Position numbers and translations under genes: made by a program. A stretch of 35,026 nucleotides of DNA from Lysobacterales bacterium (GTDB lineage Bacteria > Pseudomonadota > Gammaproteobacteria > Xanthomonadales > SZUA-5). The stretch is from NCBI GenBank assembly GCA_041745855.1, contig JBGTIE010000737.1, forward strand, positions 1 through 35,026, read 5' to 3'. The notes beneath the pieces were generated by a model. The model did not search any database. It was not told where the DNA came from and worked only from the letters and a program-made list of their open reading frames with translations. Below, one piece after another: positions 18,697 to 35,026 of the stretch; position 1 is the stretch's first letter; each line of letters begins with the position of its first letter.

Positions 18697-18880
18697 CCGT
18701 CAGTCCCCCTGCTGGACCGGCCACTGGTACGGACTGTAACAGTCGGCTTCGAGCCCTCCGATAGTCCGCTCAGAGACGACAGATTCTGTCGTAGCAATGG
18801 CGATACTCGGCGGGTCCAGCAGCATCGAGAGATCGCATGACCAGTTTTCAGTCGACCAATCGCCCCTTGTCTGCTATAGC
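18654..18880. repeat. Direct repeat DR-L: recC codons 1-14 plus about 185 nt of recC leader/upstream region
   Basis: 18654-18746 matches 23495-23587 at 89/93 by hand alignment. The rest aligns more loosely (about 70 %) with 23588-23720. Confidence 0.85.
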
Positions 18881-18947
18881 CCAGTCAGGAACTATTGCAG
18901 CAGCGCCGCAAGGCGCATCCGATCAGCGCATGCACAGGGGAGCATGA

Positions 18948-19790: not shown

Positions 19791-22413
19791 CTATTTTCAG
19801 GAGAATGGCTGGTCCATTGTTCATCGGGAAGAGCGCGCAGGGAGAATTGGAGAAACCTTTCCTAGCGACGATCTTGGACTGAGCGACGGCGCACGAAAGC
19901 TCATTTACGCAAACGGCATCTACGGGCACCAACGGGAAGCAATTCGAGCTTTCTCGAGCGGGGAAAACGTTGCTATAACGACAGCGACAGCGTCGGGAAA
20001 GACGTTGGTTTTTAACGTGTGTGCAGCCGAACTGCTCCTGACTGGCAATCATACGATACTCGCACTTTATCCCCTGAAGGCACTTGGGAAGGAGCAAGCT
20101 CAACGCTGGAAGGCAATGCTCAAGAAGATAGGCCTTGAGAAATCTGTCGGCTACATTGACGGCAGTGTTGGCCAGCCCGAGCGACTTCGTATCTTAAAAG
20201 AATGCCGGGTATTGGTAGGCACGCCTGACATCTTGCATGCCTGGATACTCAGGCAGGGCGGGCAGGCGGATGTCGTTAGCTTCATCAGGAGGCTTAAGCT
20301 CCTGGTGATCGACGAAGCGCATTCATACACAAGCGTCTTTGGCAGTAATGCTGCCTATGTGTTCAGGCGTTTGGAGCATGCATGCCAGAATCTCGGTGGG
20401 AGTCTTCGTTATATCGCGGCTTCGGCGACGATGGACGCACCGCTCGCGCACTTGGAGAAGCTGACCGGGCGAACTTTCCGCGAAGTAGATGAGTCAACCA
20501 ATACGGCGCCGTTAGAACCCGTCAAGTTCATATGCGTCCGTCCCGGTGGAGGTGACGGTTTAACCGCGTTGGGAAATCTGCTTTCCTGTGCGTCGGAAAT
20601 TGAAGGTGCAAAAACGATTGCATTCGTTGATAGCCGCCAGTTAGCTGAACACGCAGCGGTCATAGCCGGACGCCGGAGCGACGCGCCGCCAGACGAGTTT
20701 GAACGCGACCTTGACGAAGCGCTTGATGAATTGAAGCTGCCCAAAGGCAAAGTGTTGCCGTATCGATCTGGTTACGCGGCGCAGGATCGAGAGGCCATTC
20801 AACGAGCGCTAACAAACGGGAAACTTCGAGCTGTCGTCAGTACAAGCGCGCTTGAACTAGGTATTGATATTCCTGGGTTGAATCTTTGCATACTCTACGG
20901 AATACCACCATCAGGAAGCAGCTTTCGACAGCGCTATGGGCGCGTGGGAAGAGACGCACCCGGTACCGTAGTCATTATTGACGATGGATCTCCTCGAGCA
21001 GTCGCGATATTTAAGGACCCAAGCATGATTTGGGCGCTGCCTCTTACCAAGAGCTCGCTCTATCTTCATAATCGACAGGCGCAGTATATCCACGCGATGT
21101 GTTTGGCCTCGCAAAATGGGGAAGACCAGGCCTTTGCCAAGGCGGGGTCTTCGTCGGCACGGCAATTTTCGCGCACGGGGCTTTTCCCTGACGATTTCAT
21201 TGCATTGTGTCAAGCTGAGCATCAGGGCTCAATACCTCAGGAGTTACAATATCTCCGAGATCTGAGTGGAGATAGTCCCAATCTCTCATTCCCGCTGCGA
21301 GACATTGGGCTTCAATTTAGGATTTTGAATCCGCAGCGGTTCGGGAGAGAGACGCTTGGCGATCTTTCGCACGCCCAGTTGATGCGTGAGGCCTACCCGG
21401 GCGCTATTTATTATCATATCGGAACCGCTTATCGTGTATTCCGAGTGTCACTGCGCGAGAGGGAGGTTCTCGTTCGCCGTGAAAAGCATTACTTCACTTC
21501 CGCAAAGAGGCTACCCAGCAAAATCTTCCCGGAATTCCGCAGCGACAAAGTCTTCTGTGATTTGACCCAAGGGACGATGAGGGTAGTTGAATGCGGATTG
21601 AATATTCGTGAGACTCTTGTTGGTTTTCGGGAGTTCCGCGGCGGGAACAGGTTCGATGTTGATTACCCGCTGGAACCCGCGCTCAGACTGTACTTTGATC
21701 AGAAGTACTTCTCTCGGAACTGGTCGACCTCCGGCGTCATTCTGACCCACCCGCAGCTCGCGATTGACGAAGTCGATCTCACCGTCGTCGCGAGCTTTGT
21801 GTTAGATGCGTTCTTGATGGAAATTCCGTTCGACCGTCAAGATGTTGGTGCAGGGGTAGACAAGATCCAGGTCGGCGAGCGTGGGCATCGTGAGGGCCAG
21901 TACTTTATATGCCTATACGATAAGCAGGCTACGCTGAGACTTTCCGGCGCAATTACGGAGAAAGGTGCCCTTAAGAAAGTTCTCGAGCGCGCACATGATT
22001 TGGCGAGTGGTATTGCCGGCATCGACGGAGGCCCGTCGGCAGCTGTCCTGAACGTACTGGAAGCGCTTGCGATGGAGTCGGCTGAGTTGCCTGTGACGAA
22101 TTCGGAGGCGGCGCTCTTGCCAACTTCAGATCGTTACGTTCCGGTTATTCGACCAGGCTCCATTGGGATCGATCCTACGCGCCAAGGCGAGGAGTTCCAC
22201 GTCACGAATGTCCTTTGGCACCCGATGTTTGGCCTCGCTTATCATGGCACTTATGTATCGGAGGAGCGTCGTGCAGTGGGTATAAATGGCAACGGACCTG
22301 CTCAAACCTTCGTGGCAGCTGAAAAGCTGCAGGGTATTCCTGGCTTGTCGTCAATGTCTTGGTATGACAAAGTAAAGGCGGCCGTGGTTAATGAAATCGA
22401 GGGTGAGTTTTAG
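19774..22413 (+). CDS. SF2 DEAH-box helicase, MrfA/YprA-like, with DUF1998-like C-terminal region lacking cysteines (879 aa)
   Basis: GGGAGG lies 5 nt upstream of ATG 19774. Motif I ATASGKT (19984-20004), motif II DEAH (20311-20322), motif VI QRYGRVGR. Post-helicase blocks AYPGAIYYHIGTAYRV...HYFTS and DRQDVGAG...QYFICLYDK follow. Confidence 0.85.
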   Translation: MESLFSYFQENGWSIVHREERAGRIGETFPSDDLGLSDGARKLIYANGIYGHQREAIRAFSSGENVAITTATASGKTLVFNVCAAELLLTGNHTILALYPLKALGKEQAQRWKAMLKKIGLEKSVGYIDGSVGQPERLRILKECRVLVGTPDILHAWILRQGGQADVVSFIRRLKLLVIDEAHSYTSVFGSNAAYVFRRLEHACQNLGGSLRYIAASATMDAPLAHLEKLTGRTFREVDESTNTAPLEPVKFICVRPGGGDGLTALGNLLSCASEIEGAKTIAFVDSRQLAEHAAVIAGRRSDAPPDEFERDLDEALDELKLPKGKVLPYRSGYAAQDREAIQRALTNGKLRAVVSTSALELGIDIPGLNLCILYGIPPSGSSFRQRYGRVGRDAPGTVVIIDDGSPRAVAIFKDPSMIWALPLTKSSLYLHNRQAQYIHAMCLASQNGEDQAFAKAGSSSARQFSRTGLFPDDFIALCQAEHQGSIPQELQYLRDLSGDSPNLSFPLRDIGLQFRILNPQRFGRETLGDLSHAQLMREAYPGAIYYHIGTAYRVFRVSLREREVLVRREKHYFTSAKRLPSKIFPEFRSDKVFCDLTQGTMRVVECGLNIRETLVGFREFRGGNRFDVDYPLEPALRLYFDQKYFSRNWSTSGVILTHPQLAIDEVDLTVVASFVLDAFLMEIPFDRQDVGAGVDKIQVGERGHREGQYFICLYDKQATLRLSGAITEKGALKKVLERAHDLASGIAGIDGGPSAAVLNVLEALAMESAELPVTNSEAALLPTSDRYVPVIRPGSIGIDPTRQGEEFHVTNVLWHPMFGLAYHGTYVSEERRAVGINGNGPAQTFVAAEKLQGIPGLSSMSWYDKVKAAVVNEIEGEF

Positions 22414-22415
22414 CC

Positions 22416-23432
22416 ATGACAGAAAAGCAGGTTGTTGTCCGCAGGCTGGACTTGCCGGGAGCTATAGCTTGCCTGAAGGAAGCGCAAATAGTCGCGGAGC
22501 ATGCCAGTGTGATCGTTGTTGATTTTGGGGGATGCGAGTGGGCGGAGCCACTGGGCATGCTGGTTTTCGGCGCGTCGCTACGAGACCTTCGTGCAGAAAC
22601 TAAGAAAATAAGACCCGAAGTTAAGTTTCGTGCAATCGGATATGAGGGGCGCGGCTATCTCGCACACATGGGTTTGTTCAAGCTCTTCGGGCTCAATTAC
22701 GGCAAAGCACCCGATGAAGCGGAGGGCGGTTCGCGCTATGAACCAATCCGGTTCATTGATCTTGCCGAGCTTGAGCGAAATGCGGCCGAGCAATATCAGG
22801 ATACGCACGAATATATTGAGAAAACCTGTCAAGGGATGGCCAGCTTGCTTGTTCAAGGTGGCTCTGAGATTCTGTCTGAAACTCTGGGGTACTGCTTGCG
22901 AGAGATTGTCAGGAATGTCTTGGAGCATGCCCAGGTAAGTGGCTTGTGGTATTGCGGGCAATATTGGCCTCAGAAAGACAAGGTAGAGCTGGGTCTTTTC
23001 GATCTTGGGATGGGTGTTCGACGTGCATTGTCGCGCAACCCGCACATTGCGGTCGAATCCGACCAAGACGCGATTCGATTGGCAATCAAGCCAGGAATTT
23101 CCGGAGTGGTTTTTCAGGGTGCGCGGCAAATGCGCAATGATGGATGGCAGAATTCTGGCTTTGGCTTATATATGACGAGTCAGATCGCGGCGCAGTATGG
23201 GCAGTTTCGTTTGGGGAGCGGCGATTCGCTGATGACGTTTGACGCCAAAGGGCAGGAATTTCAGGAATTCAGGTTGAAAGGAACGGCGGTGTCGATAAGC
23301 CTCCGTCCAAGCAAGGTCACCAAGCTGGCCGAGCGGCTTTCGGAGCTTCGGAAGGCTGCGAAGTCGGGTAGTTCGGGTGATGACGGGACGACCGTTCGCT
23401 CGGCGTCGGCCTATGGTCGGGGAAAGACGTAA
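22416..23432 (+). CDS. GHKL-type (histidine-kinase-like) ATPase with STAS-like N-terminal region (338 aa)
   Basis: N-box EIVRNVLEH, G1 box DLGMG and G2 box NSGFGLY. N-terminal segment VIVVDFGGCEWAEPLGMLVFGASL. The start is 2 nt after the helicase stop. Confidence 0.75.
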   Translation: MTEKQVVVRRLDLPGAIACLKEAQIVAEHASVIVVDFGGCEWAEPLGMLVFGASLRDLRAETKKIRPEVKFRAIGYEGRGYLAHMGLFKLFGLNYGKAPDEAEGGSRYEPIRFIDLAELERNAAEQYQDTHEYIEKTCQGMASLLVQGGSEILSETLGYCLREIVRNVLEHAQVSGLWYCGQYWPQKDKVELGLFDLGMGVRRALSRNPHIAVESDQDAIRLAIKPGISGVVFQGARQMRNDGWQNSGFGLYMTSQIAAQYGQFRLGSGDSLMTFDAKGQEFQEFRLKGTAVSISLRPSKVTKLAERLSELRKAAKSGSSGDDGTTVRSASAYGRGKT

Positions 23433-23494
23433 ATGCCCTGTGCCTGCATGAGGGCGGTGATCGGCTTCGCCTCGGTTCCAGCGCGTGGTAAGGC

Positions 23495-23720
23495 CAGCCA
23501 GCGATTCGATTCTGCTGCTGCGGTAGATATGGAGCATCGGTGAGTCCCCCTGCTGGAACTGCCACTGGTACGGACTGTAACAGTCGGGGTCGAGACGGCC
23601 GATTGTCGGGGGCGAGGCGACAGATTTGGTCGCCGCAGTATCGATACTTCGGCCAGTTGTAGATTTCACAGCGCGCGGGGGAGATTTTGGTCGACCGATT
23701 GGCCGTGGTCTGATATAGAG
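23495..23720. repeat. Direct repeat DR-R: orphan copy of recC codons 1-14 (23496-23537, minus strand) plus leader/upstream region
   Basis: The minus strand encodes MLHIYRSSRIESLA, then diverges from recC. See DR-L. Confidence 0.85.
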
Positions 23721-23782
23721 AAGACTGCGCTTTGATGTCCTAGGCTGCCACCGCGCCAAAGACCAACAATGTAGGGATTCCC

Positions 23783-26700
23783 ATGCCAGCTGAAACTAAA
23801 GGTCGCGACCTCTTCATCGTAGACAACAGCGTGTCAGGCTGGACCTGCCTTCGCTATCTGGAGGAATGGGCTGGCATTGCGAAGAGCTTTGACATTGCAA
23901 CTGGCTACTTCGAGATCGGTGCGTTGCTCGCCCTCGATGGTAAGTGGCAGCAATTGGAGAAGATCAGGATCCTGATGGGCGCGGAAACAATGCAATTTTC
24001 TCGGAAAGCATTGCTTGAAGCTGTGCGGTCCCGCGCAGCAGAAGTATTGGATCGCAGCATTGAGTGCGACAAGACGGCAAACCCCTTCCTGAACAACGTG
24101 CCGGCAATTTTGGAGGCACTCCGCTCACGCCAGATCGAGTGCCGTGTCTACGACAAGGACAAGTTCCATGCAAAGGTATACATCACTCATGCCAAGTTGG
24201 AGGTTGTCGGGTCGCAGGCTCTCGTCGGATCCAGTAACTTCACCCCTCCTGGACTTACCCAAAACATCGAACTGAATATACAGGTGCAGAGTGCGCGCGA
24301 GGTGGCACAGCTGCAGGAATGGTTCGAGGTGCACTGGAACGACGCTAGCGACATCACTGACACTGTCATCGAGACGATCGATCGTCACACGCGCCCTTAC
24401 AAACCATTCGAGGTGTACGCGAAGGCGCTACAGGAGTTCTTCCGCGGTCATGAATTGACAGCAAGCGAGTGGGACGAGACTCGCTCGAAGATGTTTCCGC
24501 ATATCGACCGCTATCAGAAGGAAGCCTACTGGGCGCTGATGAAGATTGCGCGCCAGCACGGTGGCGCGTTCCTCTGCGACGGCGTCGGGCTCGGCAAGAC
24601 CTTCGTCGGCCTGATGCTGATCGAACGCCTGGTGCTGCACGAAGGAAAGCGCGTCGTGCTTTTTGCACCAAAGGCAGCGAAGGAGGGAGTGTGGGAGCCG
24701 CATTTGCGTGACTGGTTACCACACATCGGCGGTGTAGGTGGCGGCGCTGACTTTAGCAACCTGGCTGTCTTCAGCCACACGGACCTCGGCCGCAAAGGCG
24801 ACTTTCCCGAGCGTTTTCGAAGGATTGCGGAGTTGGCGGACGTCGTTGTGATCGATGAAGCACACCACTTTCGCAATCCGGGTCGCCCACGTAGGGAAGA
24901 CGACGACGTTGAGCCATCCCGCTACCATCGTCTTTATGACCTGCTCGACAGCACGGCACGGCCAAAGACACTCTTCATGCTCACTGCAACGCCAATCAAC
25001 AACCGACTGAGCGACTTCCGGCATATGGCAGAGCTGTTCACGCGCCGGGACCAGACGTATTTCGCGCGAACGCTGGGCGTCAACAATCTGACTGCGCACT
25101 TCAACCAAGTGGAAAAGGCGCTCCGAAGCCAGGTCGGCCATGACGTGAGCGATGTCGCCGAACACATCACCGAAGCTCAGGAGATTCTGGCGAGCGATGA
25201 GGTCTTCCGTCATCTGGTAGTCCAGCGTAGTCGCGCCTATGCACGAGAAAGCCAGATCCGCGAGACAGGCAAGGCGGCCGCCTTTCCGGATCGAAGATCT
25301 CCCCAGGTGGCCGGTTATTCAATACGGAAGAGTTACGGACGTCTGCTCGACATGTTCGAGAACGCTTTCCAAGGGAAGAATCCGCTTTTTGCATTGCCGA
25401 TGTACTACCCGTTGGCTTGGTACAAGGGGCCAGATACCAGTATTGACCCGCTGGAGCAGGGTCGGCAGAAGCAGGTTGTTGGTCTCATTCGAACCAACTT
25501 TCTCAAGCGCTTCGAAAGCTCGGTCGTGGCGTTCGAGCTTTCCTGCGACCGACTGCTACAGAAGCTCATGGCGTTTCTGGAGGTACATAGTAAGACAGTA
25601 ACCGAGAAGAAGAAGCTGGAGCGCTGGAAAACGGACAATGCCGAGGCGCTCGGCTACGCGCGTCAGAGGCAGCTGGAGCTTTGGGGTGATAGCCGCGACG
25701 AGTCCGAAGACGAAGACATTGTGCCTCAGGAAATGCTTGATGCCGTCGAGCGTCTTGACCGCAATGAGTACGATTTGTCAGCCATGATGGCAGAAACGTT
25801 TCGGGACCTCGACCAGCTAACTCACTTTGTAAGTGAAGCGAAGAAGTTCCAGCCAAAGCACGACGACAAGCTGCAGAAGCTCATCCGCCTACTCAAAACC
25901 AAGGATCTCGCCGGCCAAAAAGTGTTGATCTTCACCGAGTTCGCCGACACAGCGCGCTACCTGAAGCGCGAACTGGACCGGGCCGGCATCGACGGCGTTG
26001 CCCAGGTGGACAGCGCAACCAAGGCCAACCGAGCCGATGTCATTCAGCGCTTCGCGCCTTACTACAACAGCACTTCCTCGAAGGCGCTAGCGAAGAAGGG
26101 GGACCCTGAGACCCAGATACTCATCTCGACCGATGTTCTCTCGGAAGGCCTGAACCTTCAGGATGCTTCCCGGATGATCAACTACGACATCCACTGGAAC
26201 CCGGTCCGCCTGATGCAGCGCATCGGCCGCGTGGACCGGCGCATGAATCCGGAAGTCGAGAAACGATTTATCGCCGATCACCCCGAAGTCGCCTCGTCGC
26301 GCGGGAAAGTGAGCTTCTGGAACTTTCTGCCGCCCGACGAGTTGAATGCAATTCTTACTCTCTACACAAAAGTTACCCAGAAGACTCTGCTGATTTCCAA
26401 GACCCTCGGCATCGAGGGTAAGAAGCTGCTCACACCTGACGACGACTTCGACGCTCTCAGGGAGTTCAACCACGCCTATGAAGGCACAAAGACCGCCGTT
26501 GAGGACATGCATCTTGAGTTTCAGTCGCTGCTGCAGGCTGACCCGGAGCTGGAGTCCCGCCTGCGACGGCTGCCAGGCGCCACTTTTAGCGGTCGCAAGT
26601 GTCCTGCGAAGGGTGCGCGAGGAGTGTTCTTCTGCTACGCGCTCCCGGCGCTCGACAAGGAAGCCGGCGAATTCACACAAGAGGCCGGTACCACCCGCTG

Positions 26701-26932
26701 GTACCTCTTCGATCTCGAACGGGACGCAATTCTGGAGGACCCTGGCGAGATCGTTGGCAGCATCCGCTCCAAACCCGAGACGCCGCGCAGGTGCACTACC
26801 GGGCAGAAGACCCTCGTCGAGCTCCGCGCAAAGCTTGAGAAGCACATCAAGAACACCTACCTGAGGCGGGTCGACGCGCCGGTCGGGGTGAAGCCGGCGC
26901 TTCGCTGCTGGATGGAACTCAACGAGGGATAG
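23783..26932 (+). CDS. PLD-family nuclease domain fused to SNF2-family helicase (1049 aa)
   Basis: N-terminal HKD-type motif FHAKVYITHAKLEVVGSQALVGSSNFT (about 24167-24244). SNF2 motifs DGVGLGKT (24581-24601), VIDEAHHFRN (DEAH 24854-24865) and LTATPINN. C-lobe LIFTEFADTARYL, STDVLSEGLNLQD and HWNPVRLMQRIGRVDR. Confidence 0.9.
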   Translation: MPAETKGRDLFIVDNSVSGWTCLRYLEEWAGIAKSFDIATGYFEIGALLALDGKWQQLEKIRILMGAETMQFSRKALLEAVRSRAAEVLDRSIECDKTANPFLNNVPAILEALRSRQIECRVYDKDKFHAKVYITHAKLEVVGSQALVGSSNFTPPGLTQNIELNIQVQSAREVAQLQEWFEVHWNDASDITDTVIETIDRHTRPYKPFEVYAKALQEFFRGHELTASEWDETRSKMFPHIDRYQKEAYWALMKIARQHGGAFLCDGVGLGKTFVGLMLIERLVLHEGKRVVLFAPKAAKEGVWEPHLRDWLPHIGGVGGGADFSNLAVFSHTDLGRKGDFPERFRRIAELADVVVIDEAHHFRNPGRPRREDDDVEPSRYHRLYDLLDSTARPKTLFMLTATPINNRLSDFRHMAELFTRRDQTYFARTLGVNNLTAHFNQVEKALRSQVGHDVSDVAEHITEAQEILASDEVFRHLVVQRSRAYARESQIRETGKAAAFPDRRSPQVAGYSIRKSYGRLLDMFENAFQGKNPLFALPMYYPLAWYKGPDTSIDPLEQGRQKQVVGLIRTNFLKRFESSVVAFELSCDRLLQKLMAFLEVHSKTVTEKKKLERWKTDNAEALGYARQRQLELWGDSRDESEDEDIVPQEMLDAVERLDRNEYDLSAMMAETFRDLDQLTHFVSEAKKFQPKHDDKLQKLIRLLKTKDLAGQKVLIFTEFADTARYLKRELDRAGIDGVAQVDSATKANRADVIQRFAPYYNSTSSKALAKKGDPETQILISTDVLSEGLNLQDASRMINYDIHWNPVRLMQRIGRVDRRMNPEVEKRFIADHPEVASSRGKVSFWNFLPPDELNAILTLYTKVTQKTLLISKTLGIEGKKLLTPDDDFDALREFNHAYEGTKTAVEDMHLEFQSLLQADPELESRLRRLPGATFSGRKCPAKGARGVFFCYALPALDKEAGEFTQEAGTTRWYLFDLERDAILEDPGEIVGSIRSKPETPRRCTTGQKTLVELRAKLEKHIKNTYLRRVDAPVGVKPALRCWMELNEG

Positions 26933-26936
26933 GACC

Positions 26937-29900
26937 ATGTCAACCAACCACCGCGCCGCATTGGCGGACATCAAGACATTCCCCCAGCTCATCGCCTACC
27001 TGCGCGACGAGATGGGCTGGCCGATTGCCCGCGACTCGTTCGAGGACGTGGACGATCTGTTCTACGACTTCACTGCCGACGAGCTCGGTATCGACCCGAA
27101 AACCGCCGCCAAGATCACCGAGATCAAGCGCCTCCGGCCACTCTCGCCCTGCCAGCCCTGGGGCATTTTCTTCGTCAAGTTCGAGCCGAAGAAGCTCCCG
27201 GTGGTGGCGCTGCGCCGCATCCTGAGCCAGGTGGCGCTCAAGAAGCGCGCCTCCGCCAACAGCGCCGACCACACTGCCTGGGCTGCCGACGACCTGCTCT
27301 TCGTCTCCAACTACGGTGAGGGCAGCGAGAGACAAATCAGCTTCGCGCATTTTGCGAAGCCGCAGGACGGCCACGACCTCCCCACCCTCAAGGTGCTCGG
27401 CTGGGACAACCGCGACACAGCATTGCATCTCGACGCCGTTGCGAAGGAGCTGACGCAGCATCTGGCCTGGCCCGACGACGACGCCGATGTCGAGGCCTGG
27501 CGCAAAGGCTGGCGCGGCGCCTTCACCCTGCGCCACGGCGAAGTCGTCACCACATCGAAGGAACTCTCGATCCGCCTGGCCAGGCTGGCGGGTGACATCC
27601 GCGACCGCATCAAGTCCGCGCTCGCCATCGAAACCGACCGCGGCCCGCTCACCAAACTGATGAGGACGTTCCAGACGTCGCTGGTTCACGATCTCGACAC
27701 CGACGGCTTCTCCGACATGTACGCGCAGACCATTGCCTATGGTCTGCTCTCGGCGCGCATTGCCGACCCGCACAAGAAGACCGTCGACGACTTCGCCGGC
27801 CACATGCGCACCAACCCGTTCCTGCGCGAGCTGATGGAGACCTTCCTCAAGGTCGGCGGGCGGCGCGGCAAGGCGGGCGGGCCGGGCATCGACTTCGACG
27901 AGCTGGGCGTGAGCGAAGTCGTGCAGTTGCTCGACGACGCCAACATGGAAGCTGTCGTCCTCGACTTCGGTGACAAGAACCCGCAGGAAGACCCGGTCAT
28001 CCACTTCTACGAGTTGTTCCTCAAGGAGTACGACGCCAAGAAGCGGATGCAGCGCGGCGTCTTCTACACCCCACGCCCGGTGGTCTCCTACATCGTGCGC
28101 TCGGTGGACGAGCTGCTGCGCACCGAGTTCGGCCTCGACGACGGTCTCGCCGACACGACCACCTGGGGCGAGATGGCCAAGCGCCACAAGGATCTGAAGA
28201 TTCCCAAGGGCGTCTCACCTGACCAGCCCTTCGTGCAGATCCTCGATCCCGCTACTGGCACCGGAACCTTCCTGGTCGAGGTCATCGACATTATCCACAA
28301 GACGATGGTCGCTAGGTGGAAGGCGCAAGGCCACCGCCAGAAGAAGGTCGCGTCGCTGTGGAACGAGTACGTGCCCGAGGCCCTATTGAAGCGCTTGCAT
28401 GCCTACGAACTGTTGATGGCGCCCTACGCCATCGCGCATTTGAAGGTCGGGCTCAAGCTCTACGAGACCGGGTACCGCTTCGGCAGCGATGAACGGGCGC
28501 GCATCTACCTCACGAATGCGTTGGAGCCGGCGCACGACTTCTCGGGGACCTTTGAGTTCGCGATTCCGGCGCTCGCGCATGAGGCGCGTGCAGTCAACGC
28601 AATCAAGAGCCACCAACGTTTCACCGTCGTGATCGGCAACCCACCGTATGCGGGCGTATCGTCAAATACGGGCGAATGGGTCACTCGTCTGATAAAGGAT
28701 TACTACTTTGTAAATGGGGAGCCATTGGGTGAACGCAATCCGAAATGGCTGCAGGATGACTATGTCAAATTTATCCGGTTTGGCCAATGGCAGTTGACTA
28801 ACAGCGGGATTGGTCTGTTCAGTTTCATTACGAACCACAGCTACATCGACAACCCGACGTTCCGAGGATTCCGTCGGAATTTTGCAACGCAGTTTTCAAA
28901 TGTTGCCGTTCTCGATCTTCATGGAAATTCAAAGAAAAAAGAGTCGTCTCCAGACGGAACGACCGATGAAAACGTGTTCGATATCCAGCAAGGGGTGGCC
29001 ATCTTTTCCGCTTGGAAATCGCAAGGGACGAGCCGGAACATTTTGCACGGCGACTTGTTTGGGACACGCCAAACGAAATACGCTCGATTGCTCGGAAACT
29101 CTTATGCTTCGACTAAATGGACAGCGGTAGCGAGTTCCGAACCATATTACCTGTTTGTGCCACAATCAGAAGACTTGCGTGCTGAATACGAAGCAAGTAT
29201 GCGCATCACTGACCTTACTCTAACGAATGGCTGGGGCGTCGCGACGAGGAAGGATTACCTGCTGGTGGATTTCGATGGCGACGATCTGCGATCTCGGTTC
29301 AACAAGATATTGGGCGGCACGGCAAATGAGGCCTATGCGCTCGGCCTGAAAGACAATCCGCACTGGAAGTTCTCTTCGGTCAAAGACCGGCTGGGGAAGA
29401 CTGTAGGAAAACGAGTCGTGAAGTATGCCTACCGCCCCTTCGACACCCGCTGGGTCTTTTACGAGCCGCTAATGATTGAAAGAGGAGACCATCGTTGGTC
29501 CATTGCACGGCACCTCTTCAACCTTGAGGACAATCTAAGCCTGCTCGTCAGTCGAACCGGCGCCGCCGCCGGTTCTCCTATGTGGGATGTTCTTTTCGTG
29601 GCCAACGGGATTAGTGATCTAAACCTTTTTCGGCGCGGGGGGGCGTTCATGTTTCCCCTTTATCTTGTGCCTGGCGACGATGAATTAGCATTCAGTTCAA
29701 CCAAGGCGCTGAATCTATCTGTTCAGTTTCTCAATGCGCTTTGTTCGCAGCTTAAATTGAAACCGAGCACGACAGGCCTGCCTGACGGCCTGACGCCCGA
29801 AGACATCTTCCACTACGCCTACGCGGTGTTTCACAGTCCCGGCTACCGGAGCCGCTACGCGGAGTTTCTGAAGATTGATTTCCCGCGCCTTCCATTGACA

Positions 29901-30956
29901 GGGAACCTGGAGCTTTTCCGATCGCTGGCCCGGCTAGGCGGCGAACTCACTGCCCTGCACCTGCTGGAGTCGCCAAAGCTCGCCCAGCCCATCACCGAGT
30001 TCATCGGCGGCCGCCATCCCGAAGTCGAAAAAACCTCGTGGTCGCGCAACACCGTGTGGGTGGACAAGGCGCAGTCGACCGGCTTCCAGGGCGTGCGCGA
30101 GGACGTGTGGAACTTTCACATCGGCGGTTACCAGGTCTGCGAGAAGTGGCTCAAGGACCGCAAGGGACGCACGCTCAGTAAGGACGACATCGCCCACTAC
30201 CAGAAGATCGTCGTCGCGCTCAACGAGACCATCCGCCTGATGAAGGAGATAGACGAAGTTATTGAGAAGCATGGCGGCTGGCCCGGCGCATTTTCGTCAT
30301 CCTCGGGTCCTGCCCTGACGAGAAGGGTTGAGACGCCGTTGTCAACTGTCGAGACTATGAAGCTGCCTGTCGGCGCGCCACCTCAGCAACAGCTGTATGT
30401 GATCCCTGATGTCCCGTTCAGGAGGGCCGCGGAGCCCGCTCGACCCGAGTACGACGCTGAGCCAGCCAACACATCGTCTCAAGGGCTGGCGAACAGGGAC
30501 CGGCTGCTGGACAAGGATCAACTTGTTTGTCGAGTTCGGCATTGTTTCATGGGGGGCAAGGAGCGCGACCGAGAAGAAGCCATCCTCGAACTCGCTCGGG
30601 CATCGGGATACCAACGGACTGGGTCTCGAGTCCGCGAAGCCATGGACGACGCGATTCGAACGTCAGTGCGAAGGGGGATCCTGGAGAACGTTGGAGGCAA
30701 GCTGCGGATCTGCGCCAAGTCCATCGATCAATACGAGCGCGAGTTCCTCAAGACCCAGTTCCTCGCATCCTTGGAGGGAACGAACTGGACTGAGCGGGAG
30801 GACGCCATCCGGGCATTTGCCCGTTGGCTGGGGTTCCTGCGGACCGGCTCGACGATCGACGAGACGGCTCGTTCACTCATCAACGGCTTGATTCGGGAGT
30901 CGAGGCTTGAAAGCGAGGGAACGAGGGTGCGGATCGGCGGCATGATTCACGAATGA
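26937..30956 (+). CDS. N6-adenine DNA methyltransferase (Eco57I/type-IIG/ISP-like) with type-ISP-like C-terminal specificity region and a repeat-containing tail (1339 aa)
   Basis: GVFYTPRPVV (28062-28085), motif I ILDPATGTGTF (28239-28271) and motif IV NPPY (28638-28649). HIGGYQVCEKWLKDRKGRTLSKDDIAHYQKIVVALNETIRLMKEIDEVI (30117-30263) resembles the type ISP C-terminal domain. The start is 4 nt after the SNF2 stop. Confidence 0.88.
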   Translation: MSTNHRAALADIKTFPQLIAYLRDEMGWPIARDSFEDVDDLFYDFTADELGIDPKTAAKITEIKRLRPLSPCQPWGIFFVKFEPKKLPVVALRRILSQVALKKRASANSADHTAWAADDLLFVSNYGEGSERQISFAHFAKPQDGHDLPTLKVLGWDNRDTALHLDAVAKELTQHLAWPDDDADVEAWRKGWRGAFTLRHGEVVTTSKELSIRLARLAGDIRDRIKSALAIETDRGPLTKLMRTFQTSLVHDLDTDGFSDMYAQTIAYGLLSARIADPHKKTVDDFAGHMRTNPFLRELMETFLKVGGRRGKAGGPGIDFDELGVSEVVQLLDDANMEAVVLDFGDKNPQEDPVIHFYELFLKEYDAKKRMQRGVFYTPRPVVSYIVRSVDELLRTEFGLDDGLADTTTWGEMAKRHKDLKIPKGVSPDQPFVQILDPATGTGTFLVEVIDIIHKTMVARWKAQGHRQKKVASLWNEYVPEALLKRLHAYELLMAPYAIAHLKVGLKLYETGYRFGSDERARIYLTNALEPAHDFSGTFEFAIPALAHEARAVNAIKSHQRFTVVIGNPPYAGVSSNTGEWVTRLIKDYYFVNGEPLGERNPKWLQDDYVKFIRFGQWQLTNSGIGLFSFITNHSYIDNPTFRGFRRNFATQFSNVAVLDLHGNSKKKESSPDGTTDENVFDIQQGVAIFSAWKSQGTSRNILHGDLFGTRQTKYARLLGNSYASTKWTAVASSEPYYLFVPQSEDLRAEYEASMRITDLTLTNGWGVATRKDYLLVDFDGDDLRSRFNKILGGTANEAYALGLKDNPHWKFSSVKDRLGKTVGKRVVKYAYRPFDTRWVFYEPLMIERGDHRWSIARHLFNLEDNLSLLVSRTGAAAGSPMWDVLFVANGISDLNLFRRGGAFMFPLYLVPGDDELAFSSTKALNLSVQFLNALCSQLKLKPSTTGLPDGLTPEDIFHYAYAVFHSPGYRSRYAEFLKIDFPRLPLTGNLELFRSLARLGGELTALHLLESPKLAQPITEFIGGRHPEVEKTSWSRNTVWVDKAQSTGFQGVREDVWNFHIGGYQVCEKWLKDRKGRTLSKDDIAHYQKIVVALNETIRLMKEIDEVIEKHGGWPGAFSSSSGPALTRRVETPLSTVETMKLPVGAPPQQQLYVIPDVPFRRAAEPARPEYDAEPANTSSQGLANRDRLLDKDQLVCRVRHCFMGGKERDREEAILELARASGYQRTGSRVREAMDDAIRTSVRRGILENVGGKLRICAKSIDQYEREFLKTQFLASLEGTNWTEREDAIRAFARWLGFLRTGSTIDETARSLINGLIRESRLESEGTRVRIGGMIHE

Positions 30957-31004
30957 ACATGCTACTTAGTCCAACCAGATTGGCAAGACGAGGGAGAGTG
31001 GAGG

Positions 31005-33614
31005 ATGGTCACGAAATTTCTTCAAGGTGAAGAGTTTACTCTGTCATTGCGCGAACTGTATCAAAAAGGCGGCAAGTATCAAAAAGCCGCACAAACAGTC
31101 CAAAGCATTTGGGGCCGCGCCAAGCTTGATGGTGCAACTGTCGAAGAGACCTTTAAAGGAGTTCCGACAACAAACCATGGCGAGAACCGAATTTCGCACT
31201 GTGTGAAGTTCGACTTGACCGGCTTTGCGCGCCTTGTCGTCGTTCACAACAGGAACGTCTGCCTCTTTCTCTTTACCGGTGATCATAATGCGGTTGATAA
31301 TTGGCTGGAACGGAACAAGGGGCTCGACTATGTTGCGCGGCATCATGGCGATTCACTTGTGCTCGACAAGATTCGAGTATCAGACCTATCGCAAGGGAAA
31401 AATGGCCACATCACAAGCGAATCCGACTTGAGTACCGGGGCGCTGTTCGAACTCTTGCCAGAGCGATGCCAAGATCGAATTCTGCATGATTTTGGTGAAG
31501 ATGAGCGCGCTGAAGTATTGAAAATCGAATCAATCGCAGATGATGATTTGATTCTCGCTGTCTCCACTCAATGTGGCACTCAGGAGCAGCAAGGCGCGCT
31601 GATGGATGTACTTTTGTCACTCCGCAATGGGGATGTCACGAATGCGAAAAACCGCATTGATCTTTACAGTCAAGTAGCGACGCCGGTGGAGGATCTTCCG
31701 AAATCCGATATTGAATCCTTGCAGTCGAGTGATGCGGCTGTACTACTTGCGGACGTCGACCCCGAATTGTTCCAGCACTTTGTAGAAACTGCGACGTTTG
31801 AGAAGTGGATGTTGTACTTGCATCCGGCTCAGCGGGAACACGTAGTTAAAGAATTCTCTGGCCCAGCACGCATGGCTGGGGTGAGTGGATCTGGAAAGAC
31901 CTCTGTAGTCGTTCACCGGGCGCTTAGGCTGGCCGATAAGTATTCGCCAGAACCCGTCCTTGTTGTGACCCTTAGCGCGGCACTTGCGTCACTTATCAAT
32001 CAGTTGATTGATGCACAGCGCGGCAATACTCGGCCTGGGAACCTGAAGGTTACATCAATCTTCGACTTGTGCTTTGATAAGCTGATGCAGATCGAGCCGC
32101 AACGGCGAGATTACTACACAAAGAGAAGTATTGCGAAGAACCCACATGCAATATCAGATCATATCGACGAAGTCTGGCATGAGTTCTTTATGTGTGAGAA
32201 CAATAATCATGATGCGGACGTGCTGCTTGACGTAATACAGTCACTCAATGTGCGTGGTATCTACGCCAATGACTATCTCAGACAGGAACTTGACTACATT
32301 CGAAGCTCTCGTTCCCCTGCTGACAGATCAGGTTATTTGCAGATGGAGCGTCTTGGTCGCATCGTGCCGCTCGATGAGAAACTCAGACAGCAGATCCTGG
32401 ATGGGTTGTCAGGCTGGGAACGCAAGATGAATGCGGTGGGCGTCATTGACGACATGGGTATAGTGTCGTCGTTATACCATCATCTCGATTCCGTTGAGCC
32501 GGAGTACAGAGCAATATTGGTCGATGAGGCGCAAGACCTTGGTACGCTTGAGCTGGCTATCATCAGGCGATTGGTTCGTGAAGGTGAGAACGATATCTTT
32601 CTTTGCGGTGATACGGCGCAGACAATCTATACGAAGTCGGCAGATTATAAGGCTGCGCGCATTGAAACGGCAGGTAGATCGGTCAGGCTTCTCCAAAACT
32701 ATCGGAATAGCCGTCAAATATTAACCGCCGCATATGAAGTCCTCACCCGCGCTCTTGAATCGATGCCAAAGGGGGCAATGAACCTGGATGTGCTTGTTCC
32801 GGACTACGCTAGCTTCTCCTCTCCAAAACCTCTTCTGCTGCGTGCGGCCTCATTCTCTGAAGAGCTAGAGTACGGATTGGGATTCTTGAGATCTTGTGTC
32901 GAAGATAGCCCAATAAACCAGCGCTACTGTCTGGCTATATGTGGTTATACGCATGCGGCCGTTGAGCAGATCGGTGTTCAACTTTCCTTGCCGATACTCG
33001 CTGCAAACACAGATGTCCGTACTGCCCGGATATTCATTTCTGATCTCGAACAGACGAAGGGGTTTGAATTTGACTCTGTCGTCGTAATCAACTGTTCAGC
33101 TCGGGTTCTCCCACATCCATATCTGCCTAGTGAGGAATCGTTCCGGGATCTTTGCCGCCTGTATGTTGCGATGACACGGGCAAAAACGCAGCTTGTTGTT
33201 TCGTACACAGAGACGCCATCACGGTTTATTGCGGCTGCGCGGGAGTTCTTTATTGAGGCAACGTTTGAAGAATATGCCGAGCCCGTGAAAGTGATAGATT
33301 CCGATCTGCCCACGCAGGCAATCCCGGCGCTCCTGAATCATCATGCATGGGGCCTGTCAGGAAAGAAATTCATCAAGTACAGGGATGCAGTAGGGCTCGA
33401 CAGGACCGTTCAAGAAGAGATTCTCAACCATGTTACGGGTGTAGAGAAAGTCCGTGGTCGCGAGAAGAAACAACTGGAGTGGAAGACATTCGGGGCTTTT
33501 GCCAAGGCAATGGAACAACCGAGGAGTCGGCACCAGATTCTCAGTGATGAGGCATGGTCGAGCCTTTCACGGCATCTGGCGGTTCTGCGACAAGGGCAGG
33601 TTCAGGCTCAATGA
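31005..33614 (+). CDS. SF1 (UvrD/Rep-like) helicase with about 270-aa uncharacterised N-terminal region (869 aa)
   Basis: Walker A GVSGSGKT (31878-31901), ILVDEAQDLG, CGDTAQTIY, LQNYRNSRQIL, KGFEFDSVVV and LYVAMTRAKTQLVVSY. RBS GGAGAGTGGAGG precedes the ATG. About 42-47 % GC. Confidence 0.88.
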   Translation: MVTKFLQGEEFTLSLRELYQKGGKYQKAAQTVQSIWGRAKLDGATVEETFKGVPTTNHGENRISHCVKFDLTGFARLVVVHNRNVCLFLFTGDHNAVDNWLERNKGLDYVARHHGDSLVLDKIRVSDLSQGKNGHITSESDLSTGALFELLPERCQDRILHDFGEDERAEVLKIESIADDDLILAVSTQCGTQEQQGALMDVLLSLRNGDVTNAKNRIDLYSQVATPVEDLPKSDIESLQSSDAAVLLADVDPELFQHFVETATFEKWMLYLHPAQREHVVKEFSGPARMAGVSGSGKTSVVVHRALRLADKYSPEPVLVVTLSAALASLINQLIDAQRGNTRPGNLKVTSIFDLCFDKLMQIEPQRRDYYTKRSIAKNPHAISDHIDEVWHEFFMCENNNHDADVLLDVIQSLNVRGIYANDYLRQELDYIRSSRSPADRSGYLQMERLGRIVPLDEKLRQQILDGLSGWERKMNAVGVIDDMGIVSSLYHHLDSVEPEYRAILVDEAQDLGTLELAIIRRLVREGENDIFLCGDTAQTIYTKSADYKAARIETAGRSVRLLQNYRNSRQILTAAYEVLTRALESMPKGAMNLDVLVPDYASFSSPKPLLLRAASFSEELEYGLGFLRSCVEDSPINQRYCLAICGYTHAAVEQIGVQLSLPILAANTDVRTARIFISDLEQTKGFEFDSVVVINCSARVLPHPYLPSEESFRDLCRLYVAMTRAKTQLVVSYTETPSRFIAAAREFFIEATFEEYAEPVKVIDSDLPTQAIPALLNHHAWGLSGKKFIKYRDAVGLDRTVQEEILNHVTGVEKVRGREKKQLEWKTFGAFAKAMEQPRSRHQILSDEAWSSLSRHLAVLRQGQVQAQ

Positions 33615-33624
33615 GATTTGATCA

Positions 33625-33840
33625 ATGAGTCAATGGACTGATGTGATTCTTGGCCAATTCGTAGCTGATCTGACACGGCAATGGGTAGGGTGCGACCCCG
33701 ACGATGTGCTGCTCGACGAGAAGCTATTGTCGGAGCTGCGTAGCCGGGGCTTCGAGGTGATGCTTTACGAAGACCCGTTCACGTGCCGCATGAAGCCCAG
33801 CATCGCGCTCCAATGCGCTACTTCATTTATGTCGGTGTAG
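33625..33840 (+). pseudogene. 71-codon ORF, probably the 5' remnant of a larger gene (N-terminus recalls PglZ-type proteins; tentative)
   Basis: It starts 10 nt after the helicase stop. MSQWTDVILGQFVADLTRQWVGCDPDDVLLDEKLLSELRSRGFEVMLYEDPFTCR... then ends abruptly just before convergent genes. Confidence 0.35.
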
Positions 33841-33884: not shown

Positions 33885-34169
33885 TTAGTCGACTTCAAAA
33901 TTGAAGTTGACGAAGGTGTAACCAGACTCTGATTGCTTGACAGTGATGTCTGTGTCACCTTTGGTCCAGGGTGATGCCCGGACCTCCCTGATGAGGTCCT
34001 CTTCGTCTATTCCGGCGATGTCCTCGTTGGAGAAAATGAGGCTTTCGGCGGTGATTCCGTCCCAGACCCATTTTTGGTAGAGAACGTCATAGGGACCGAG
34101 TCTCGTTTCGAGCTGGAGGATGATCCTTGTGTCATCGTCCACCGGCACGTTGTCGAACTTGCCTGTCAT
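33885..34169 (-). CDS. Hypothetical small acidic protein (94 aa), translationally coupled to the upstream nucleotidase gene
   Basis: ATG 34169 overlaps the TGA of the upstream gene (ATGA at 34166-34169). The longer listed ORF (to 34415) lies inside the nucleotidase gene in another frame. Confidence 0.55.
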   Translation of the reverse strand: MTGKFDNVPVDDDTRIILQLETRLGPYDVLYQKWVWDGITAESLIFSNEDIAGIDEEDLIREVRASPWTKGDTDITVKQSESGYTFVNFNFEVD

Positions 34170-34627
34170 GTCTCTGCTCTGGATCGGGTCATCAGGTAGT
34201 CGTGCACCGTGGTCCAGTCCGGAAACCGAGGTGTGCCGAAGTGCAGATGTTCGCCCTGGAACGTGTCTGCGCCGTTCTTCAAGCGATCGTCGACCAGGAA
34301 GTGGCCGTAGTTCAGGTTCTTGTGGTGAGACAGAATCAGTCGCTTGTGAGCATGATCGCCTAGATGGCGCCTGACCCAGAGCAGCTTGTCTGACCATGCG
34401 GACGGGTTTTCCCATGGGGAGGTGGAAAGAACGTAGGTATTAAAAGCGCCTGCCAATTGCTTGAATGCATCAATGGCTCCCGCCATGGGATCCATCAGGG
34501 AAAAAATGCCTGGAACTTCATCAAGGCGGTCCTCGTACTCGTCAAACGTCGCCTTCGGGATTCTGGGGAATGCTGATGCAAAATCCACCAGCACATTGTC
34601 CATGTCTATGTAGAGTATTCGCTTCAT
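34166..34627 (-). CDS. HAD-superfamily 5'(3')-deoxyribonucleotidase (NT5C-like), 153 aa
   Basis: Motif I YIDMDNVLVDF (DxDxV), motif II VLSTSP, and the Lys/Asp motifs KLLWV...FLVDDRLKNG. The size is typical for this family. Confidence 0.75.
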   Translation of the reverse strand: MKRILYIDMDNVLVDFASAFPRIPKATFDEYEDRLDEVPGIFSLMDPMAGAIDAFKQLAGAFNTYVLSTSPWENPSAWSDKLLWVRRHLGDHAHKRLILSHHKNLNYGHFLVDDRLKNGADTFQGEHLHFGTPRFPDWTTVHDYLMTRSRAET

Positions 34628-34762
34628 GCTGATGCCTTGGGTTGCGGTTGTTTAGGGTAAGCGATGTGGCCGATCTCGAACGCTTTCTTGTACATCGACG
34701 GCCCCTTCGCTGTGCTCCGGTGAGATCATGGTAGGGGGTCGGGGCGACGGGACTTGTCGTTG

Positions 34763-35026
34763 ATGTGGAGTGCGGTGGCTTTGATATGGAGTGCGGTGGC
34801 TTGCCACCGCTCTTAATATGGAGTGCGGTGGCTTGCCACCGCTCTGCTGTTGGCAGCTTGCTGCCGCTGTTGCTGTTTGCCGGTGGCGCGCCTGGCCAGA
34901 GACCTCGTGCAGTTTGCGATGGGAAGTTGGGGGTTGGAAGGGCTTCGAGGCGGGGGTGGGGCGAGAGCCAGGGCGGCAGCAAGCTGCACAAGAGCAGAGC
35001 GGTGGCAAGCCACCGCACTCCAGAAT
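34763..35026. repeat. Composite REP cluster R6 (forward REPs 34763-34872, spacer, inverted REP 34972-35026; runs off the window)
   Basis: Read directly. The spacer shares cttcgaggcggggg...gagagccagggcggcagcaagctg with cluster R2. Confidence 0.9.

Follow-up and report, generated by a model that had tools for sequence, protein, structure and literature searches.

The contig JBGTIE010000737.1 of a Lysobacterales bacterium (assembly GCA_041745855.1), a stretch of 35,026 nucleotides (nt) that was analysed over its whole length and is here called the window, carries three consecutive genes on the forward strand, and the first two of them probably constitute a split Type ISP-like, ATP-dependent restriction-modification system, to which the third seems to have been joined recently, outside the core. 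Gene 1 encodes a phospholipase D-like (PLD) nuclease fused to an SNF2-type motor of helicase superfamily 2 (SF2), gene 2 an N6-adenine methyltransferase (MTase) followed by a target-recognition domain (TRD), and gene 3 a helicase of superfamily 1 (SF1) preceded by a RelE-like domain. Judged by comparison with their homologues, gene 1 and gene 2 are a strictly coupled and horizontally widespread pair in which the catalytic residues are conserved and the TRD is hypervariable, and they appear to bear the signatures of an active, DIVERSIFYING restriction-modification-like system. Gene 3, in turn, is a member of a separate family of RelE-like-UvrD helicases, which occur alone or 3′ of various methylation-based defences.

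The preliminary description of this DNA had read the three genes as one split module, either Type ISP-like or DISARM-like, with a helicase that belonged to neither paradigm. The idea of a split ISP-like MTase coupled to a partner is supported; the DISARM-like reading, the triad as a unit and the position of the helicase outside the known paradigms are not. The three open reading frames (ORFs), the gaps of 4 and 48 nt and all of the motifs quoted at that time are present as described and the coordinates are exact. Both junctions were read directly: gene 1 ends in GAGGGATAG, which is followed by 4 nt (GACC) and by the ATG of gene 2, and the TGA of gene 2 is followed by 48 nt containing GAGGGAGAGTGGAGG and by the ATG of gene 3. 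Since all three proteins have close homologues, the three-gene observation is far beyond chance.

The PLD-SNF2 and methyltransferase pair

In the gene 1 protein, Pfam recognises the ATPase through ResIII (amino acids, aa, 242-405; 242-414 for ResIII and SNF2 together) and Helicase_C (aa 696-819, E-value 6e-19), downstream of the PLD domain (Table 1), and the characteristic motifs are FHAKVYI (aa 128), GSSNFT (149), GVGLGKT (267), DEAHHFRN (358) and QRIGRVDR (812). The whole protein contains a single HKD-like motif, with H129 and K131 as its HxK and with GSxN at aa 149-152, and therefore two protomers should be needed for one nuclease site, as is the case for Nuc, BfiI, SauUSI and MANTIS MtsD. 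In sequence searches of the PDB, the PLD region gave weak matches to SauUSI (7clg, E 2e-4) and BfiI (2c1l, E 2e-3), and the ATPase gave weak matches to RapA and other SF2 proteins. The top PADLOC model is an unnamed candidate, C3a139 ‘HKD+Snf2’ (201 bits), and on the NCBIfam model NF042964, ‘phospholipase D-like anti-phage protein’, gene 1 scores 144 bits, the cut-off being 1100. Pfam found no domain recognisable as a reader of modified bases. By analogy, gene 1 would be an effector of the SauUSI/MtsD type. Its conservation is high: 75 gene 1 sequences show no variation in the HxK and GSxN of the PLD domain, in Walker A, in DEAH or in motifs III and VI, 5816 proteins are homologous at E <= 1e-10 among the candidates scored, and the best 120 homologues are all of about 1049 aa and 82-88% identical.

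Gene 2 matches LlaBIII (4xqk) with an E-value of 2e-29, aa 351-1034 being aligned to residues 842-1483 of LlaBIII, and DrdV and LlaGI are also matched. The motifs VFYTP (aa 375), DPATGTGTF (437) and GNPPY (567) belong to the MTase, and GGYQVCEKWLKDR (1063) lies within the specificity domain PF18135. Pfam detects neither a nuclease nor a helicase domain. On the strength of the LlaBIII match, gene 2 corresponds to the half of a Type ISP enzyme that contains the MTase and the TRD and, as the preliminary description had maintained, it has no nuclease or motor of its own. In databases, its homologues are called ‘type ISP restriction/modification enzyme’ by NCBI, and the PADLOC model REase_MTase_IIG (PDLC03610) gives 666 bits, with the best stretch at aa 599-1108 against positions 556-1075 of 1096. 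Where a Type ISP enzyme has its nuclease, motor and coupler, gene 2 has about 350 aa of conserved N-terminal sequence, in which no Pfam match and no nuclease domain were found. An AlphaFold2 (AF2) model of the N-terminal 360 aa reached a pLDDT (the local distance difference test score predicted by AF2) of 71 and a predicted TM-score (pTM) of 0.50, and Foldseek searches of the PDB with it returned no significant match (LlaGI, E 0.27).

Along gene 2 the conservation is very uneven. In 56 sequences, FYTP, DPATGTG and NPPY are conserved at about 100%, and the identity to the window copy is 65-83% per 50-aa bin over aa 1-350 and 65-86% over aa 1-550, falls to 23-34% over aa 700-950 and returns to 54-78% over aa 950-1100. 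This collapse is what a swapped TRD is expected to produce, and the conserved catalytic motifs of both proteins indicate selection for their activity. Furthermore, the GC content at third codon positions (GC3) breaks sharply within the gene, from 0.88 in aa 1-550 (26937-28586) to 0.58 in the variable part (29037-29786), consistent with a recombinational replacement in which the recognition domain came from a donor of lower GC content.

The association of the two genes was followed in a scan with gene 1 that retained one genome per species and gave 80 loci with identities of 66-86% (median 77%). These loci are found in more than 10 phyla, including Acidobacteriota, Gemmatimonadota, Chloroflexota, Planctomycetota, Spirochaetota, Actinomycetota and Elusimicrobiota, and in Bradyrhizobium, Chromatium and others. 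A homologue of gene 2 stands after gene 1 in 77 of the 80 loci; the coupling is tight in 68 of them and the gap is of exactly 4 nt in 46. The three exceptions are a truncated gene 1 match, a contig that ends about 200 nt past gene 1 and locus L067, in which about 1.3 kb beyond gene 1 contain no gene 2 match and for which we have no explanation. In the reciprocal look-up, which started from a short, an S24-fused and a tailed gene 2 homologue, a PLD-SNF2 gene was present 4 nt upstream in three cases out of three. The claim that gene 2 is tied to a PLD-SNF2 protein, which could supply both missing activities in trans, is thus supported. Literature searches returned no description of a named system made of a PLD-SNF2 protein and an ISP-like MTase.

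All-against-all clustering of the flanking ORFs revealed no further conserved partner, every other family being confined to 10 or fewer of the 80 loci. The slot behind gene 2 is occupied by varied genes, which often begin 4 nt past the gene 2 stop or overlap it. In nine loci of different phyla (L007, L017, L018, L021, L027, L029, L042, L045 and L080), the gene behind that of gene 2 encodes the reverse-transcriptase-nitrilase Drt1a (PADLOC, 1234 bits), and in seven of them it starts 4 nt after the stop or overlaps it; PDC-S68, a RecD-like SF1 helicase (1566 bits), is found behind the pair in five loci (L021, L028, L031, L033 and L068) and also after all three of the looked-up gene 2 homologues (L178-L180). 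The remaining occupants are GajA, an AbiZ-like protein and unrelated genes. These defence-island neighbours, Drt1a, PDC-S68, GajA and the AbiZ-like gene, all directly downstream in other loci, would lend support to a defensive role of the pair.

Taken together, these data lead us to propose the following mechanism. The ISP-type domain of gene 2 would allow it to read a short asymmetric DNA sequence and, as the homology with LlaBIII and LlaGI suggests, gene 2 would mark the host DNA by N6-adenine methylation of one strand. Gene 1 would supply what gene 2 is without, namely the SNF2-type motor and the PLD/HKD nuclease. Cleavage may be performed by a dimer of gene 1, or by two complexes that converge after gene 2 has recruited or licensed them where a site is unmethylated, and inverted pairs of sites would probably be favoured, as they are for Type ISP, Type III and MANTIS. 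The conserved N-terminal half of gene 2 is a likely dock for the equally conserved gene 1, and the hypervariable recognition domain would serve to diversify specificity.

If the pair works as proposed, it offers a minimal two-protein model for an MTase that licenses a PLD-motor nuclease in trans, and it could inform both the relationship of MANTIS, BREX and DISARM-like systems with the classical Type I and ISP enzymes and the diversification of specificity by swapping of recognition domains. The module has thousands of homologues in more than 10 phyla. Since gene 2 is labelled as an ISP or Type IIG enzyme and its partner, in the public annotation of gene 1 homologues, as a ‘helicase-related protein’, a common two-gene module has been mis-described as a single-protein enzyme; the pair is common, mis-annotated and directly testable.

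Some further observations concern the two genes separately. The 1049-aa gene 1 protein retains 66-88% identity across more than 10 bacterial phyla, and the vehicle of such horizontal spread is not evident; neither 72,556 plasmids nor 50,697 phage records contained a close homologue, the best match being less than 31% identical. The best plasmid matches are PLD-SNF2 ‘helicase-related proteins’ of 26-30% identity, which in the three loci inspected, out of three, lie beside other MTases: a TaqI_C-type MTase in Nostoc (L166), a site-specific MTase together with a DUF4391 protein in Lactococcus (L167), and an adjoining N-6 methylase with a DUF262 protein on a Deinococcus plasmid (L168). This suggests that PLD-motor effectors with differing methylase partners form a broad superfamily.

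In the three Bradyrhizobium loci and one other contig, a 460-550-aa gene without any family match shares 4 nt with the beginning of the homologue of gene 1 (L028, 8619-10004; L033; L037; L180, 2492-3877); it may be an optional upstream component of the pair. Drt1a and PDC-S68 are placed as if they travelled with the pair as one unit.

The C-terminal tail of gene 2 contains two repeats (38% identical, E 2e-8) and a faint match to DUF3320 (E 0.03). It is present in 8 of the 80 loci, in some of them together with an S24 domain, the remaining homologues being tailless or provided with Peptidase_S24. The hypothesis that the tail is an adaptor for the third gene was rejected, in that the eight tailed loci have differing or no downstream genes and PDC-S68 stands behind short, S24-bearing and tailed forms alike. 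Many gene 2 homologues of about 1300 or 1500 aa (P0256, P0273, P0283 and P0360; L178, 7001-10885) carry a C-terminal Peptidase_S24, a LexA-like self-cleaving domain that the window copy is without, a hint that in these variants the methyltransferase may be controlled in response to SOS/RecA.

Gene 3 and the limits of the module

The AF2 model of aa 1-275 of gene 3 is of high confidence (pLDDT 92.6, pTM 0.88), and its top 30 Foldseek matches in the PDB are all toxins of the RelE/ParE superfamily (YafQ, RelE, YoeB, HigB, ParE and PfiT) or the RelE-domain effector Cami1; the best probabilities are 0.99-1.0 and the TM(target) values mostly 0.5-0.68, with E-values of about 1e-2, none of which passes 1e-3. 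The N-terminus is thus probably RelE-like, every top fold being in agreement and the published analysis of ArmD having assigned the same. E60, R62, K68, R76 and H94 are invariant in the alignment of the family. Such architecture, together with the recurrence of the family behind several methylation-based systems, removes the earlier impression that the SF1 helicase fits no paradigm: it is that of ArmD, the fourth protein of ARMADA Type II. In fact, gene 3 shares 25% identity over 530 aa (E 2e-33) with the protein in the ArmD position of a four-gene cluster on an Escherichia coli IncY plasmid (NZ_AP027623.1, 8405-24634), which is ARMADA II-like in gene order and annotation and which we infer from these alone to be an ARMADA II system. 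GajB models match gene 3 only partially.

The gene 3 family is far smaller than that of gene 1, with about 206 word-index hits and homology over the full length; the N-terminal 275 aa detect 384 representative clusters at E <= 1e-3, and the module is at the N-terminus of full-length proteins of about 855-1085 aa. A metagenome scan yielded 80 loci with full-length homologues of 34-75% identity, and all-against-all clustering in 82 loci found no single conserved partner. A co-oriented MTase-based system adjoins the gene in 13 of the 30 family loci with at least 3 kb upstream, a raw figure, uncorrected for the background of defence genes beside MTase systems. The systems concerned are diverse: a distant PLD-SNF2 protein (22-24% identical to gene 1) with an Eco57I/TaqI_C MTase in L123 and L129; in L127, L139 and L144, pairs of ArmA/ArmB-like genes, accompanied or not by a YprA-like helicase; BREX PglZ-BrxL in L101, L124 and L152, to which a BrxL fragment about 4.5 kb upstream in L086 and a BrxL 85 nt upstream on the short contig L089 can be added; a Type III-like mod/res pair in L130; a Type I hsdRMS locus in L135; a PglX-like MTase in L153; and the gene 1-gene 2 pair in L081. 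In eight loci the gap between the gene 3 homologue and the preceding system gene is of 0-85 nt. The strength of the association is uncertain, and the tight co-oriented spacing argues that it goes beyond island crowding. An ArmD-like gene linked to several kinds of methylation-based system suggests a general accessory layer, which can be tested. In a further observation on this family, a co-oriented cluster lies downstream of the gene 3 homologue in at least five loci (L136, L140, L151, L156 and L158); it comprises three proteins of about 620-650, 270-320 and 240 aa without Pfam match, ends in a C5-cytosine DNA methylase and may be another methylation-linked system.

Several points weigh against a two-gene system with gene 3 outside its core. 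The match of gene 1 to SNF2-rel_dom, at 23.6 bits, is slightly below the Pfam cut-off of 24.9 bits. Because no fold could be assigned to the N-terminal region of gene 2, its function as a dock can only be inferred. The dnmA-yeeB-yeeC cluster of Bacillus subtilis, whose parts are comparable, showed no restriction or anti-phage activity (PMC7261158, PMC9973331), so that such clusters can be relics or conditional. Finally, a tie of gene 3 to the pair in this locus is possible, since it is co-oriented, lies only 48 nt downstream with no predicted terminator in between, and has as its counterpart ArmD, which is essential: defence by ARMADA Type II depends on all four genes and on the Walker A lysine of armD, and it is abolished when armD is deleted (PMC12458937).

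These last arguments are also those that would favour a single obligate three-component, ARMADA-like system in which the RelE-UvrD helicase is needed for restriction, an alternative that we consider unlikely. Further points in its favour are the trio of distant homologues (PLD-SNF2, Eco57I/TaqI_C MTase and gene 3-like) in L123 and the same parts in L129, the joint occurrence in L139 and L144 of an SNF2 gene, an MTase gene and a gene 3-like one, and L081, found in a separate look-up, where the pair is followed by three intervening genes and then, about 4 kb away, by a 71%-identical homologue of gene 3. However, conservation of the triad, when checked, speaks against it: gene 3 stands behind the pair in none of the 80 pair loci, its sole homologue there being 37% identical and upstream of the pair (L070), and the pair is absent from all 80 scanned loci of the gene 3 family. 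In at least 15 family loci with long flanks no MTase system was found beside the gene with the queries used. Moreover, the GC3 of gene 3 is lower (0.52 vs 0.71-0.75), which points to a recent juxtaposition with the pair. Gene 3 may be a mere neighbour or may contribute a second defensive layer, and some functional cooperation in this locus is nearly as likely as not.

Instead of being an active restriction system, the pair could consist of an orphan-like methyltransferase with an epigenetic role and a partner resembling a remodeller, or could be a relic in decay, as has been proposed for dnmA-yeeB-yeeC. The precedent of B. subtilis agrees with this explanation, and so does the finding of a split or truncated gene 2 in about 12 of the 80 loci. 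Nevertheless, the catalytic residues of the nuclease, ATPase and MTase are invariant across phyla, the hypervariable TRD is typical of an arms race with switching of specificity, the neighbours are those of defence islands and the horizontal spread at 66-88% identity is massive. Many of the comparison loci are contigs of metagenome-assembled genomes (MAGs), in which split genes may be assembly errors; many of the split copies are in long-read MAG assemblies, where indel errors would be likely. We therefore regard an inactive pair as very unlikely.

The preferred reading, an active pair with gene 3 as an addition, must also be set against a larger unit, in which the five genes from 19747 to 33614 would be one DISARM class 1 or ARMADA-type system with the upstream DEAD-box helicase in the role of DrmA or ArmC. 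The order helicase, SNF2, MTase and RelE-UvrD does recall that of L144 (YprA-like, SNF2, MTase, gene 3-like) and of ARMADA Type I and II, and the upstream helicase matches TIGR03817, at 230 bits against a cut-off of 874. The evidence to the contrary makes this highly improbable. A duplicated 5′ segment of recC lies between the two blocks. The segment from about 19673 to 23476, with the helicase and a 338-aa protein, is 93-95% identical at the DNA level in seven other contigs, none of which continues with gene 1; a BrxE-domain gene is directly downstream in five and an IS66-like transposase stands beside it in one. A nearly identical cassette with other neighbours is therefore an independently mobile two-gene unit, outside the module. 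No homologue of the helicase was found near the pair in 79 of the 80 loci, and neither an MZB/DUF1998 nor a nuclease domain was detected in it. In BLASTP comparisons with the cluster of NZ_AP027623.1, gene 1 (E 2e-9 to the ArmA-like protein) and the upstream helicase (to the ArmC-like protein) share only generic helicase motifs, and gene 2 is not significantly similar to the ArmB-like MTase (E 0.18). Every DISARM model is far under its cut-off, the helicase reaching only E 5e-6 on the DrmA models.

Lastly, it is scarcely credible that gene 1 acts on its own as a modification-dependent (Type IV) enzyme of the SauUSI kind beside an unrelated Type IIG-like gene 2, as its PLD and SF2 layout, its weak match to SauUSI and the ‘REase_MTase_IIG’ label of gene 2 might suggest, given its near-absolute coupling to gene 2 with a fixed 4-nt spacer, the missing nuclease domain of gene 2, the missing modified-base reader of gene 1 and the self-toxicity that would be expected of a methyl-dependent nuclease tied to an adenine MTase.

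Beyond the split Type ISP-like pair itself, a wider and rather doubtful hypothesis joins the two halves of this analysis: the pair would be a very widespread, hitherto unrecognised minimal ATP-dependent restriction class, and the RelE-UvrD helicases a promiscuous plug-in for at least five methylation-based architectures. In such a scheme, a single-HKD SNF2 motor licensed in trans by a self-contained MTase-TRD protein may be a two-gene bridge between Type ISP and BREX-related systems (MANTIS), and the plug-in may sit at the 3′ end of BREX, ARMADA, Type I, Type III-like and PLD-SNF2 + MTase systems, where it could be a common second effector or a guard that fires upon the block of the primary system.

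Features and surroundings of the locus

The features of the three genes and of the cassette upstream are collected in Table 1.

Table 1. Genes, domains and repeats of the locus, in positions of the window
Feature	Position	Strand	Description
Second recC 5′ end and upstream region copy	23495-23648	.	154-nt direct repeat of 18654-18807, 85% identity; between helicase cassette and gene 1
DEAD-box helicase	19747-22413		888 aa; no MZB or nuclease domain detected (Pfam)
338-aa protein	22416-23432		No family match
Gene 1	23783-26932	+	1049 aa; PLD(HKD) nuclease-SNF2-type SF2 ATPase fusion; ~230-aa C-terminal region beyond; predicted restriction effector
Gene 1, PLD nuclease domain	23882-24337	+	aa 34-185; PLDc_2 E 2e-12, RE_NgoFVII E 9e-7 (Pfam)
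Gene 1, SF2/SNF2 ATPase core	24506-26239	+	aa 242-819; Walker A GLGKT, DEAH, TATPINN, QRIGRVDR; ResIII, SNF2-rel_dom, Helicase_C
Gene 2	26937-30956	+	1339 aa; Type ISP-like gamma-class N6-adenine methyltransferase and TRD; predicted target reader/self-marker
Gene 2, N-terminal region	26937-27986	+	aa 1-350; highly conserved; putative docking surface for gene 1
Gene 2, methyltransferase core	27987-29036	+	aa 351-700; FYTP, DPATGTGTF (S-adenosylmethionine binding), NPPY (catalytic); N6_Mtase/Eco57I
Gene 2, hypervariable recognition part	29037-29786	+	aa 701-950
Gene 2, Type ISP C-terminal specificity domain	29223-30248	+	aa 763-1104; PF18135 positions 5-342 of 342, E 4.6e-76
Gene 2, optional C-terminal tail	30444-30953	+	aa 1170-1339; ~55-aa tandem repeat
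Gene 3	31005-33614	+	869 aa; RelE-like domain, helical linker, UvrD-type SF1 helicase, C-terminal region; ArmD-like accessory or autonomous module
Gene 3, RelE/YafQ/YoeB-like domain	31005-31319	+	~aa 1-105; AF2 model and Foldseek
Gene 3, SF1 helicase core	31824-33239	+	aa 274-745; Walker A GSGKT ~aa 296-300; Pfam UvrD-helicase, UvrD_C; alignment conservation

RecD, RecB and RecC are encoded on the minus strand (9957-18696), and past position 19000 the GC content of the window drops from about 0.64 to 0.50-0.60; therefore the genes sit in an island beside recC. The two copies of the 154-nt repeat bracket 18808-23494 and duplicate the region of the recC start codon, which suggests a single-crossover insertion at a recC-proximal hotspot or successive acquisitions of islands there. 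No tRNA gene marking an integration site was found in the window, and scans for promoters and terminators gave no excess over the shuffled expectation. Directly after gene 3 there is an ORF of 71 codons (33625-33840; MSQWTDVILGQF...DPDDVLLDEKLLSELRSRGFEV...), without homologue in the fetched loci and without Pfam family, possibly what is left of the 5′ part of a downstream gene that was lost. Further on, a small NT5C-like nucleotidase gene lies on the minus strand (34166-34627), and beyond it imperfect palindromes resembling repetitive extragenic palindromes (TGGAGTGCGGTGGCTTGCCACCGCTCT), in direct and inverted copies, are clustered at the right end of the window (34760-35022).

Comparison with known systems

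Membership of DISARM, MANTIS, ARMADA, Hma, Gabija and BREX was considered and rejected, the PADLOC and NCBIfam matches being partial and far below their cut-offs and the partner genes being absent. The parts of the module are nevertheless familiar ones, and they can be compared with those of several systems, among which MANTIS MtsD is the closest experimentally studied analogue of the effector.

In the Type ISP enzymes LlaGI and LlaBIII, as in gene 2, a gamma-class N6-adenine MTase is followed by an ISP-type C-terminal TRD, and by analogy the expected logic would also be shared: an asymmetric site, methylation of one strand and ATP-driven long-range communication. Unlike these enzymes, in which nuclease, translocase, MTase and TRD are in a single chain, here the nuclease and the motor are on the separate gene 1; moreover, the nuclease of Type ISP is Mrr-like, of the PD-(D/E)xK kind, whereas the only nuclease domain in the module is PLD/HKD. 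Type IIG enzymes, too, unite nuclease and MTase in the same protein, and gene 2 is without a nuclease despite its match to the REase_MTase_IIG model.

MANTIS (Gao_RL, MtsABCD) has, like the pair, a separate N6-adenine MTase and an effector with an N-terminal PLD nuclease and an SF2 ATPase. MtsD, a PLD and SF2 protein that as a dimer forms one PLD site, acts downstream of the separate MTase (bioRxiv 10.64898/2026.09.23.753747); by analogy, it would be the experimental precedent for an effector such as gene 1. From the published description, its key residues H122 and K260 can be likened to H129 and to the Walker A GLGKT (aa 269-273) of gene 1. In contrast with the pair, MANTIS requires MtsA (AAA+/DUF499) and MtsB, neither of which is conserved in the 80 pair loci or present in the window, and gene 2 differs in having its own ISP-type TRD. 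SauUSI, a Type IV enzyme made of PLD, SF2 ATPase and SRA, shares with gene 1 the N-terminal PLD followed by the SF2 ATPase, and its PLD site is formed by a dimer; however, SauUSI needs no partner and finds methylated cytosine with a reader domain of its own, whereas gene 1 is paired with an MTase and has no recognisable reader.

ARMADA Type II (ArmABCD) has an SNF2 helicase gene and an MTase gene followed by a RelE-like and UvrD helicase, and gene 3 probably has the same architecture as ArmD, a RelE-like N-terminus fused to a GajB/UvrD-like helicase. The differences lie in the other genes: the YprA-like ArmC with its C-terminal Vsr nuclease, which stands between the MTase and ArmD, is missing from 23783-33614, the PLD domain of gene 1 has no equivalent in ArmA, and ArmA and ArmB are BrxHII-like and PglX-like, respectively. 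As for Gabija, GajB is paired there with GajA, and no GajA is present in the window.

DISARM class 1, the other model invoked in the preliminary description, resembles the module in that it, too, combines an SNF2 helicase with a PLD nuclease and with a large MTase for N6-adenine. The core proteins DrmA and DrmB (DUF1998) are absent, no further conserved gene accompanies the pair, and PLD and SNF2 are here one protein; the DrmD models are matched with 130 bits against a cut-off of 610 (NF038317) and with 89 against 950 (NF038318), the PADLOC DrmMI models at E 6e-4 at best, and DrmC partially and far under the cut-off. In dnmA-yeeB-yeeC of Bacillus subtilis and Vibrio, a nuclease-less Type IIG/IIL-like MTase-TRD protein is likewise coupled to a separate SF2 helicase and nuclease; DnmA, however, is MmeI-like rather than ISP-like, and the helicase and the T5orf172/GIY-YIG nuclease are two proteins, encoded downstream of the MTase. 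Among all of these, the module would work like a split Type ISP enzyme or a minimal MANTIS-like system, conceptually close to the known ATP-dependent methylation-based defences.

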